Part shown: one piece after another, positions 422 to 17,827 of the stretch
Layout of the letters: each line of letters starts with the position of its first letter
Numbering within the stretch: the stretch's first letter is position 1
From: Candidatus Bathyarchaeia archaeon
GTDB taxonomy: Archaea; Thermoproteota; Bathyarchaeia; 40CM-2-53-6
Assembly: GCA_049517415.1 (NCBI GenBank)
Contig: JBEKSC010000002.1
Location: forward strand, 32,001 to 96,000
Length of the DNA stretch: 64,000 nucleotides
Reading direction: 5' to 3'
Program-made: the position numbers and the translations under genes
Notes under the pieces: generated by a model
The model's input: the letters and a program-made list of their open reading frames with translations, nothing else
The model's database searches: none
What the model was told of the DNA's origin: nothing

Positions 422-481
422 ACAGAAGACTTTGCCCTAGCGTCCTGGCCTCTCTTTATTGTAGGAGTGCCGAACGCGGGT

Positions 482-586
482 TGGCGCCCTTCGCCAGGAG
501 AAGGCTAGGCTGCTCCTTTGGGCGGGATTCGAACCCGCGTCGACGACGTGACAGGCCGTCATCCTAGACCACTGAACGACCAGGGC
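482..586 (-). tRNA. tRNA-Asp(GTC) with 29-nt intron at 68/69 (490..518); CCA encoded
   Basis: Cloverleaf GCCCTGG...ACGGC CT GTC AC GTCGT...GCGGG TTCGAAT CCCGC; acceptor 3' strand CCAGGGC is restored only after removing a BHB intron. Confidence 0.93.
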
Positions 587-614: not shown

Positions 615-620
615 CTTAAA
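615..620 (-). promoter_or_regulatory. Putative TATA box of tRNA-Asp
   Basis: TTTAAG on minus strand about 30 nt upstream of the tRNA 5' end. Confidence 0.5.
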
Positions 621-717
621 GCCTTGCTACAACATATACGCGGAACAGAAAAGACGCCAAGCATATCTTACGGTGGTCTTCGCTAGGATGTGACGGCATA
701 CGGACTCATATTTGGTT

Positions 718-9772: not shown

Positions 9773-10336
9773 ATGGAGAACAACCTCGGCTCAACACCTC
9801 AAGCTCCCGCGCAGGTCCAAGAAAAACCGCCGTTTACCCCTTGGAACGCGGTGTCCGGTCCGCGTTTGGTATACATACCCTATAAATCTGAACTCATGGA
9901 GTTAAGGGACCGAGGATTTGGCGACCTCCGGAAGGACAAGCTTGTCCTTTCTCCGTACGAATCATTCTATCTTCTAGAGAAACAGAAGATTAGAGTGTTT
10001 GCCAAGGATGCAGGCCGGGAGTTGGAGCTTCGAGACTTAGTCCAGAAGTATTCAGTTGACAAACCCGAGATCTGGATCAAGTACTTGGTGTACCGTGACC
10101 TACGGGAGCGTGGGTACATAGTCCGTGAGTCCACTAGGGCCTTCGATTTTGACATTTACGGAAAAGGGCCGCTGAGGCGTTTAATCTCAATCGTATACGA
10201 AGGCGGCGAAGCGAGCCTTCGTAAATTAAGTAAACTGCTTCAATATTCTGACAAAGAGAAGAAGGAGTTGATACTAGCCGTCGTTGATAGGCGGACCGAT
10301 ATTGTGTACTATACGTTGAGTTCGTTGAATGTCTAA
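9773..10336 (+). CDS. endA: tRNA splicing endonuclease subunit (probably the structural beta subunit)
   Basis: LSPYESFYLLE, YLVYRDLRERGYIV, ELILAVVD; no His after DIYGKGP. Confidence 0.8.
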   Translation: MENNLGSTPQAPAQVQEKPPFTPWNAVSGPRLVYIPYKSELMELRDRGFGDLRKDKLVLSPYESFYLLEKQKIRVFAKDAGRELELRDLVQKYSVDKPEIWIKYLVYRDLRERGYIVRESTRAFDFDIYGKGPLRRLISIVYEGGEASLRKLSKLLQYSDKEKKELILAVVDRRTDIVYYTLSSLNV

Positions 10337-17678: not shown

Positions 17679-17827
17679 TGGCGGGCCCGCGGGGATTTGA
17701 ACCCCGGACCTCTGTACCAGTGCTGGGCTGGTTCTACAGCTTTTTCCGGTGTTCCTTAGGGGGTTCGGCAACAAATTCCGCTTTATGTGCGGAGCCTGCC
17801 GCTCTATCCAACCTGAGCTACGGGCCC
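17679..17827 (-). tRNA. tRNA-Arg(CCT) with three introns: 30/31 (17764..17795), 37/38 (17742..17756), 45/46 (17710..17733); C at position 33
   Basis: Spliced GGGCCCG TA GCTC AGGTTGGATA GAGC G GCAGC CC CCT AA GCTGT AGGTC CGGGG TTCAAAT CCCCG CGGGCCC G CCA. Confidence 0.82.

Follow-up and report, generated by a model that had tools for sequence, protein, structure and literature searches.

A BHB intron at position 68/69 of the single tRNA-Asp(GTC) gene of a Bathyarchaeia archaeon, with a 3′ trailer predicted to aid its splicing

Introduction

How could an intron be spliced out of a tRNA when only eight nucleotides of the mature molecule follow it? The question is raised by the tRNA-Asp(GTC) gene of a Bathyarchaeia archaeon, which was read from the sequence on the minus strand from 586 to 482 (coordinates refer to the window, that is, the whole stretch of 64,000 nucleotides that was analysed). 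Two tRNA finders call this gene without an intron, ARAGORN at 512–587 and Rfam at 514–586 (43.4 bits), and a count on the sequence shows that the uninterrupted reading pairs 4/7 acceptor positions. A preliminary description proposed that a 29-nt intron with a strict hBHBh motif lies inside the 3′ strand of the acceptor stem, that it draws bases of the T-stem and the acceptor stem into the motif, and that its removal has to come before normal end processing. Here we analyse the insert, its conservation in relatives, the splicing enzymes of the host and the 3′ trailer of the gene, and we ask how such an intron might be presented to the splicing endonuclease.

Results

The gene as transcribed (482–586, minus strand) consists of a 5′ exon, a 29-nt intron and a 3′ exon with an encoded CCA, as judged from the sequence together with the ARAGORN and Rfam tRNA calls. 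The 5′ exon (519–586, minus strand) covers tRNA positions 1–68. Its acceptor 5′ strand, GCCCTGG at 586–580, is followed by a normal D arm, an anticodon arm (anticodon GTC, loop CTGTCAC) and a T arm (GCGGG/TTCGAAT/CCCGC); the T-stem 3′ strand CCCGC lies at 526–522, and C66, C67 and A68 follow at 521–519. The intron (490–518, minus strand) stands between positions 68 and 69, and the 3′ exon (482–489, minus strand) holds the remaining 8 nt, namely positions 69–72 (GGGC), the discriminator G73 and the CCA. When 490–518 was excised by script, the 3′ strand became the exact complement of the 5′ strand, with 7/7 acceptor pairs, G73 and CCA. Thus, the proposal that removal of the 29 nt restores the acceptor stem and leaves an 8-nt last exon was borne out. 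The spliced tRNA is computed to fold at −34.9 kcal/mol, with its acceptor stem complete and its T arm formed. Deletion of 491–519 gives an identical product, because an A stands on both sides; 67/68 and 68/69 are therefore equal by sequence, and we use 68/69 because the symmetric BHB cut sites alone select it.

Marker genes rate the 2.65-Mb assembly as 100% complete, and a blastn search of it with the 5′ exon found this locus as the sole match; a second intact tRNA-Asp(GTC), which according to the preliminary description would speak against splicing, was not found in the genome by this search. As a single copy in a 100%-complete assembly, the gene has to work. In a scan of the T arms of the genome, which excluded tRNAs whose own T arm is interrupted, 37 tRNA genes ran from the T-stem straight through 7+1 bases to an encoded CCA, and tRNA-Asp was the one gene seen with its 3′ end displaced by an insert. 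Upstream, a CTTTAAR box (615–621, minus strand) lies about 29–36 nt from the mature 5′ end and recurs at the same distance in 23/23 loci of the genus, where its flanks are variable. It is likely a TATA-type promoter element of tRNA-Asp, which would mean a short leader.

We also surveyed the other tRNA genes of the genome. The Rfam tRNA model gave 26 matches at E up to 1 over the whole genome, 17 of them above the gathering score, whereas at least 38 T arms are followed by tRNA-like 3′ ends; many tRNA genes of this genome are too interrupted for standard models. In the window itself, a scan at the Rfam gathering threshold returned two tRNA matches and nothing else. The second match, at 17682–17827 (minus strand; 37.4 bits), is read by the intron option of ARAGORN, whose calls across the genome are unreliable, as a tRNA-Trp(CCA) whose anticodon region holds a long insert.

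Three familiar kinds of interrupted gene were considered for tRNA-Asp and rejected. A canonical 37/38 intron does not fit a gene whose anticodon loop is uninterrupted and whose insert follows position 68, and a split or permuted gene does not fit exons that are colinear within 105 nt of one strand. A group I or II self-splicing intron would need a ribozyme core of hundreds of nucleotides, whereas the insert has 29.

The motif of the preliminary description was confirmed, with all helices and bulges as described and the gene on the minus strand, to which all of the following coordinates refer. In the central helix H, the exon strand CGCC (521–524; tRNA 63–66) forms four Watson-Crick pairs with the intron strand GGCG (492–495). 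On one side lies the 5′ bulge CAA (518–520), made of C67, A68 and the first intron base, and on the opposite strand the 3′ bulge AAG (489–491), made of the last two intron bases and G69; from the symmetry of BHB motifs, the cuts would fall after A68 and before G69. The inner helix h′ pairs AGGAG (513–517) with CTCCT (496–500), and the outer helix h pairs CC (525–526; tRNA 61–62) with GG (487–488; tRNA 70–71). The locus thus has the strict hBHBh′ geometry of two 3-nt bulges on opposite strands with a 4-bp helix between them. The canonical 37/38 substrate has the same arrangement of helices and bulges, with positions 32–35 paired with the intron. When both strands were scanned for the strict motif (h of 2 bp, H of 4 bp, 3-nt bulges, h′ of at least 5 bp, G-U allowed), we found 129 in the window versus 125–145 in five shuffles. 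Because the bare motif occurs at chance frequency, the evidence lies in its exact placement and in its conservation with covariation.

Conservation was therefore followed from the genus outwards. Within the genus, the matches in 22/22 other genomes extend across the intron and the 3′ exon at 90–98% identity, with the insert in an identical position. The intron loop varies in both sequence and length, and the introns of relatives measure 24–32 nt. A scan for the exact pattern in one genome per species (185,579 species) gave 63 loci: about 37 in records under the title Bathyarchaeia or Bathyarchaeota archaeon, 3 under bacterial titles but with the same tRNA-Asp, and the remaining ones chance matches in GC-rich bacteria without a surrounding tRNA. 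From 61 loci we obtained 35 unique T-arm-to-CCA sequences, and the 3/4/3 geometry is present in 35/35, with an h′ of 2–9 contiguous pairs, under a pattern that itself demanded the letters of H and h. A covariance model run on 150 sampled genomes of the class gave full-length matches of at least 46 bits in 22, which by eye comprise 21 tRNA-Asp and 1 tRNA-Met(CAT) and place the intron in 10 further families; many 28-nt matches of this model are intronless 3′ ends.

The intron is also found outside the class. Among 150 genomes from the phylum, the same tRNA-Asp intron was present in 6/7 genomes of genus g98, which belongs to another class. These g98 loci (L136–L141) come from AT-rich genomes of 1.2–1.5 Mb and combine the 68/69 intron with a trailer complement of 9–10 nt. 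Within the family of the window, the distribution is patchy: in the sister genera g2, g3 and g5, position 68 is contiguous with the letters of the 3′ exon. The tRNA-Asp genes of g5 (L024–L028 and L135) have no 68/69 intron and carry instead, within the T arm, an insert of 24–32 nt that follows the T-stem 5′ strand. Sister genera thus hold different introns in the same gene.

The helices were then evaluated in an alignment of 54 unique sequences (A3), with the intron in the same place throughout. This set is made of kin and not of independent samples, and the regular expressions used to select its sequences already required part of H and h; in it, 98.0% of cells were paired, versus 39–56% with the partners slid by 1–3 columns. 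To pass the filter for the 54, a sequence needed at least 3/4 H pairs, GG for the two h pairs, and pairing at the first two positions of h′. L005 (an A-C mismatch in the T-stem; this sequence is included in alignment A1), L116 (whose T arm is divided by another intron) and L117 (a tRNA-Met) were left out of the 54. In the inner helix h′, both sides change at 5/5 pairs, with 95.9–97.8% of cells paired. At the central-helix pair that joins position 65 to the intron, 40 of the 54 have C-G and 14 have G-C, in step with the T-stem type, GCGGG or CCGGG. The 2-bp outer helix h is invariant in all sequences and is for that reason uninformative. The placement at 68/69, with T-stem and acceptor bases drawn into the motif, thus recurs with covariation in the relatives, with 67/68 its equal by sequence. 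By every feature tested, the insert is an archaeal BHB intron of the EndA/RtcB type, with cleavage and ligation predicted from sequence.

The genome encodes the enzymes that such an intron would need. A profile search found two PF01974 genes above the cut-off. One, a 190-aa ORF on contig C10, aligns over its full length with crenarchaeal heterotetrameric catalytic subunits (3p1z_B, E 7.5e-39) and keeps the Y...H...K stretch aligned to them, residues that we take to be the catalytic ones. The other, of 187 aa (9773–10336, plus strand; PF01974, with PDB matches to splicing endonucleases), is more divergent, with no histidine seen at the corresponding place, and is probably a structural, non-catalytic subunit of the beta type; it happens to lie in the window, 9 kb from the tRNA-Asp gene. 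By analogy with the known architecture of the family, the two paralogs would form an alpha2-beta2 enzyme. RtcB is also encoded (572.9 bits). The heterotetrameric type of endonuclease has been linked, in a passage of one review, to a broad substrate range.

Immediately downstream of the gene, we found a second conserved element. The nine bases after the CCA (473–481, minus strand) form eight Watson-Crick pairs and one G-U pair with positions 46–54 of the tRNA (533–541, minus strand), which comprise the end of the variable region, the T-stem 5′ strand (49–53) and T54. We refer to this trailer element as the anti-T-stem; script counts, predicted folds and covariation all bear on it, and folds and covariation on its partner. 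An exact complement of the gene’s own T-stem 5′ strand occurs no more than 30 nt after the CCA in 39/54 intron-bearing genes, extending to a 6-mer in 38 and to a 7-mer or longer in 36. As controls, the 37 other tRNAs of the genome have a trailer complement in 4 (5-mer), 2 (6-mer) and 1 (7-mer), and the intronless Asp orthologs in 0/12. Where an exact complement is present, it fits the gene’s own T-stem: that of the other type (GCGGG or CCGGG) was found in 0/40 and 0/14. Most of the 15/54 genes without an exact 5-mer have G-U or shifted versions, and two of the 54, L112 and L113, have nothing convincing.

The distance of the element from the CCA ranges from 0 to 16 nt with the complementarity kept, and the complementarity continues into the variable region or the T-loop, as would not be expected of a mere copy of the T-stem 3′ strand. 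Because the spacing varies, MAFFT does not align the element, and we relied instead on the script counts and on a model-fitted alignment. In the latter (A5, from a second model), which leans towards structure by construction, pairing in the trailer helix reaches 91.4%, and position 49 and its trailer partner read G-C in 25 sequences and C-G in 9. Covariation thus forms a chain: 49 with 65 in the mature T-stem, 65 with an intron base in the BHB helix, and 49 with a trailer base. In genus g98, a run of 4–7 T stands between the CCA and the element, and for some transcripts it might act as a terminator upstream of it.

Similar elements were seen behind a few other genes. The tRNA-Met(CAT) of genome G063 (L117) has a 68/69 intron of the same geometry in addition to a canonical 37/38 intron, and the complement of its T-stem 5′ strand directly follows the CCA. 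Three tRNA-Glu(TTC) genes of relatives, L125 (G056), L126 (G050) and L129 (G091), were parsed by eye as having an apparent BHB-type intron at 70/71, with a central helix CCCG:CGGG, bulges GAA with AGG or AAG, an outer helix of a single pair and a 3′ exon of 6 nt; a trailer element stands behind 1/3 of them, and the other two are without it. Outside the window, two tRNAs of the genome with uninterrupted 3′ ends, near 24621 of C13 and near 29897 of C7 (both plus strand), are followed by 8-nt Watson-Crick complements of their T-stem 5′ strands. Both of these genes look multiply interrupted upstream, and trailer anti-T-stems may also serve other non-canonical introns.

In order to see how the trailer affects the predicted fold, we compared precursors with and without it; all energies are for naked RNA at 37 °C. 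In a precursor ending at the CCA, the T arm and five acceptor pairs are predicted to form and the intron to project as a hairpin to the side (−40.1 kcal/mol, z −0.58), and the strict BHB without the trailer comes to −30.5, about 9.6 kcal/mol worse. With the 9-nt trailer, both the MFE and the centroid become a long hairpin of −49.3 kcal/mol (z −2.22; 3/200 shuffles as good), which comprises the trailer helix, an internal loop, a BHB-like core and the inner helix. The MFE has the 3′ bulge in a register of 2 nt instead of 3 nt; when folds were forced in the presence of the trailer, the strict BHB reached −45.9 and the T-arm/acceptor fold −40.7. Folded locally, the intron region alone gave no BHB in its MFE, as is normal for BHB motifs. 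The relatives were folded as well. For the 54 sequences from position 43 onwards, folds without the trailer have the T arm in 54/54 and the central helix in 0. When 30 nt of trailer are added, 6 keep the T arm, 47 pair the T-stem 5′ strand with the trailer and 28 form the complete central helix.

Within these models, then, the trailer appears to flip the predicted fold from a cloverleaf-like one to one that presents the BHB, and such a trailer-dependent switch suggests that splicing probably comes ahead of 3′ trimming. Two statements of the preliminary description need adjusting in this light. The first, that neither stem can form completely until splicing has occurred, holds for the BHB conformer only; a precursor lacking the trailer is predicted to retain the T arm and five acceptor pairs. 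The second, that end processing follows splicing, receives indirect backing at the 3′ end only, through a covarying trailer that the energy models need, and we retain it as a model-based inference for that end.

Before accepting a spliced gene, one may ask whether there is an intron at all, since ARAGORN and Rfam (43.4 bits) both call an uninterrupted tRNA. Such a molecule of 73–76 nt would have a poor acceptor stem of 4/7 pairs and would lack the G73-CCA end, and neither it nor a decaying pseudogene sits well with the sole tRNA-Asp found in the genome. In addition, two classes conserve the 29 nt together with the 8-nt end and show compensatory changes in them, and insert-free orthologs run straight into the same 3′ end; we give this reading almost no credence. 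It is also highly improbable that a real insert is removed without EndA and RtcB, for example by a cut after 68 with template-independent 3′ repair or by use of a separate 3′ piece. The conserved 3-nt/4-bp/3-nt geometry with its covarying helices is that of an endonuclease substrate, the 3′ exon lies in cis 29 nt away, and both EndA and RtcB are encoded.

A more serious alternative accepts the BHB-spliced intron and denies the trailer complementarity any part in splicing, so that the element would be a termination or 3′-processing signal, a remnant of an old duplication or integration, or a folding brake for some other purpose. The fold predictions leave room for it, as even the presence of the trailer does not make the strict BHB the MFE and the central helix appears in 28/54 folds. 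So does the distribution of the element: an exact complement is absent in 15/54 genes, two tRNAs of the genome with uninterrupted 3′ ends have 8-nt trailer complements, and in g98 a T-run precedes the element. What such a view leaves unexplained is that the element covaries with the T-stem type, with zero cross-type cases, and that it keeps its complementarity at spacings of 0 to 16 nt from the CCA. A copy of the T-stem 3′ strand would not reach into the variable region or the T-loop as the complementarity does, and the element is absent from 12/12 intronless Asp orthologs and present behind a tRNA-Met with the same 68/69 intron. On this evidence, we consider a trailer without a role in splicing unlikely.

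Discussion

Taken together, these data make us fairly sure of the overall explanation, namely that the single tRNA-Asp(GTC) gene holds a BHB intron at 68/69 that is removed by a trailer-aided splicing pathway. We propose that the gene is transcribed from its own promoter, with the 3′ trailer included, and that the first 9 bases of the trailer pair with the T-stem 5′ strand and its flanks. T-stem bases 61–65 and base 66 would thereby be freed to pair with the 3′ part of the intron, and 61–62 with 70–71, giving the hBHBh′ fold. A heteromeric EndA, composed of the catalytic alpha subunit and the beta-like paralog of the window, would cut in both bulges, after A68 and before G69. The 3′ exon, which alone would be held by two base pairs, would stay tethered by the trailer helix together with the 2-bp outer helix until RtcB joins 68 to 69. 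The RNA would then refold to the cloverleaf, the acceptor and T stems expelling the trailer, and the ends would be trimmed to the encoded CCA. Our opinion is evenly balanced on the stronger claim that the anti-T-stem, by competing with the T-stem, forces the only fold that presents the intron to the endonuclease and holds the 8-nt 3′ exon (6-nt in the tRNA-Glu of relatives) for ligation, and that it represents a previously undescribed class of cis-acting processing element.

The locus pushes protein-spliced tRNA introns to within 8 nt of the 3′ end, and to within 6 nt in the tRNA-Glu of a relative. The usual view, in which the exons are kept together by the body of the tRNA, fails so near to the end, and the proposed pathway offers, for non-canonical archaeal introns, a concrete account of how the substrate is presented and in which order the processing steps follow. 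If it is true, the anti-T-stem hard-wires splicing first and trimming of the 3′ end later, and it explains how introns persist almost at the end of a tRNA in two classes of Thermoproteota. There is also a practical consequence: standard tools mis-call such genes, and both the tRNA counts and the estimated completeness of Bathyarchaeia genomes are affected. The tRNA-Asp gene may be of interest for another reason. Archaeal viruses favour the 3′ ends of tRNA genes for integration. tRNA-Asp(GUC) is named among the targets of Sulfolobus viruses in a passage of Yoshihisa 2014 (PMC4090602). We speculate that a tRNA-Asp intron at the 3′ end is a natural test case for introns protecting tRNA genes.

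In our literature search, we found no text that names an intron at 68/69 or 70/71 (a search for ‘68 69’ may miss ‘68/69’), none on tRNA introns of Bathyarchaeia, and none in which a trailer presents a cis intron by pairing with the T-stem. Introns in the amino-acid arm are reportedly mentioned by Marck and Grosjean in 2003. The position 68/69 is thus unusual and possibly unreported, although it may already be catalogued, our comparison having covered texts other than the primary position tables; the companion trailer element we believe to be undescribed. The paper on tRNAscan-SE 2.0, in the passage concerned with this step, extends candidates by 60 nt in order to find introns near the 5′ or 3′ ends.

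The closest relatives of the tRNA-Asp intron are the non-canonical BHB introns of Thermoproteota, for which Yoshihisa 2014 (PMC4090602), in the part compared here, gives positions from 20/21 through 59/60 ‘etc.’, with 3/4 in Thermoproteales as an extreme case. Like those introns, as that text portrays them, the present one is short, has two 3-nt bulges around a 4-bp helix, occurs in a host with two EndA paralogs, and recruits bases of the mature tRNA into the motif, which means that the cloverleaf must be partly unfolded. It differs from the introns in that part of the text in its position at 68/69, in its 8-nt 3′ exon and in a trailer that is apparently part of the substrate fold. A preprint on Asgard tRNAs (10.64898/2026.10.13.758758) refers in a brief mention to a few intervening sequences in the acceptor stem. 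These resemble our case as rare insertions in a lineage with heavily interrupted tRNA genes; the lineage is a different one, and the likeness extends as far as that mention.

For the trailer, the nearest analogy among the systems covered by the parts of the texts cited here is the leader-trailer pairing of split and permuted tRNAs, as described for Nanoarchaeum equitans, Caldivirga, Thermofilum pendens and Cyanidioschyzon merolae (PMC4090602, PMC3218864). There too, according to those passages, the pairing of a leader or trailer that is later discarded builds or stabilises a helix beside the BHB. Unlike what they describe, the exons of tRNA-Asp are colinear on one transcript, and the trailer pairs with the 5′ strand of the mature T-stem and not with a leader. 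In tRNA-Asp, the trailer would thus be a competitor of the T-stem, where the trailers in those accounts form a bridge between two transcripts.
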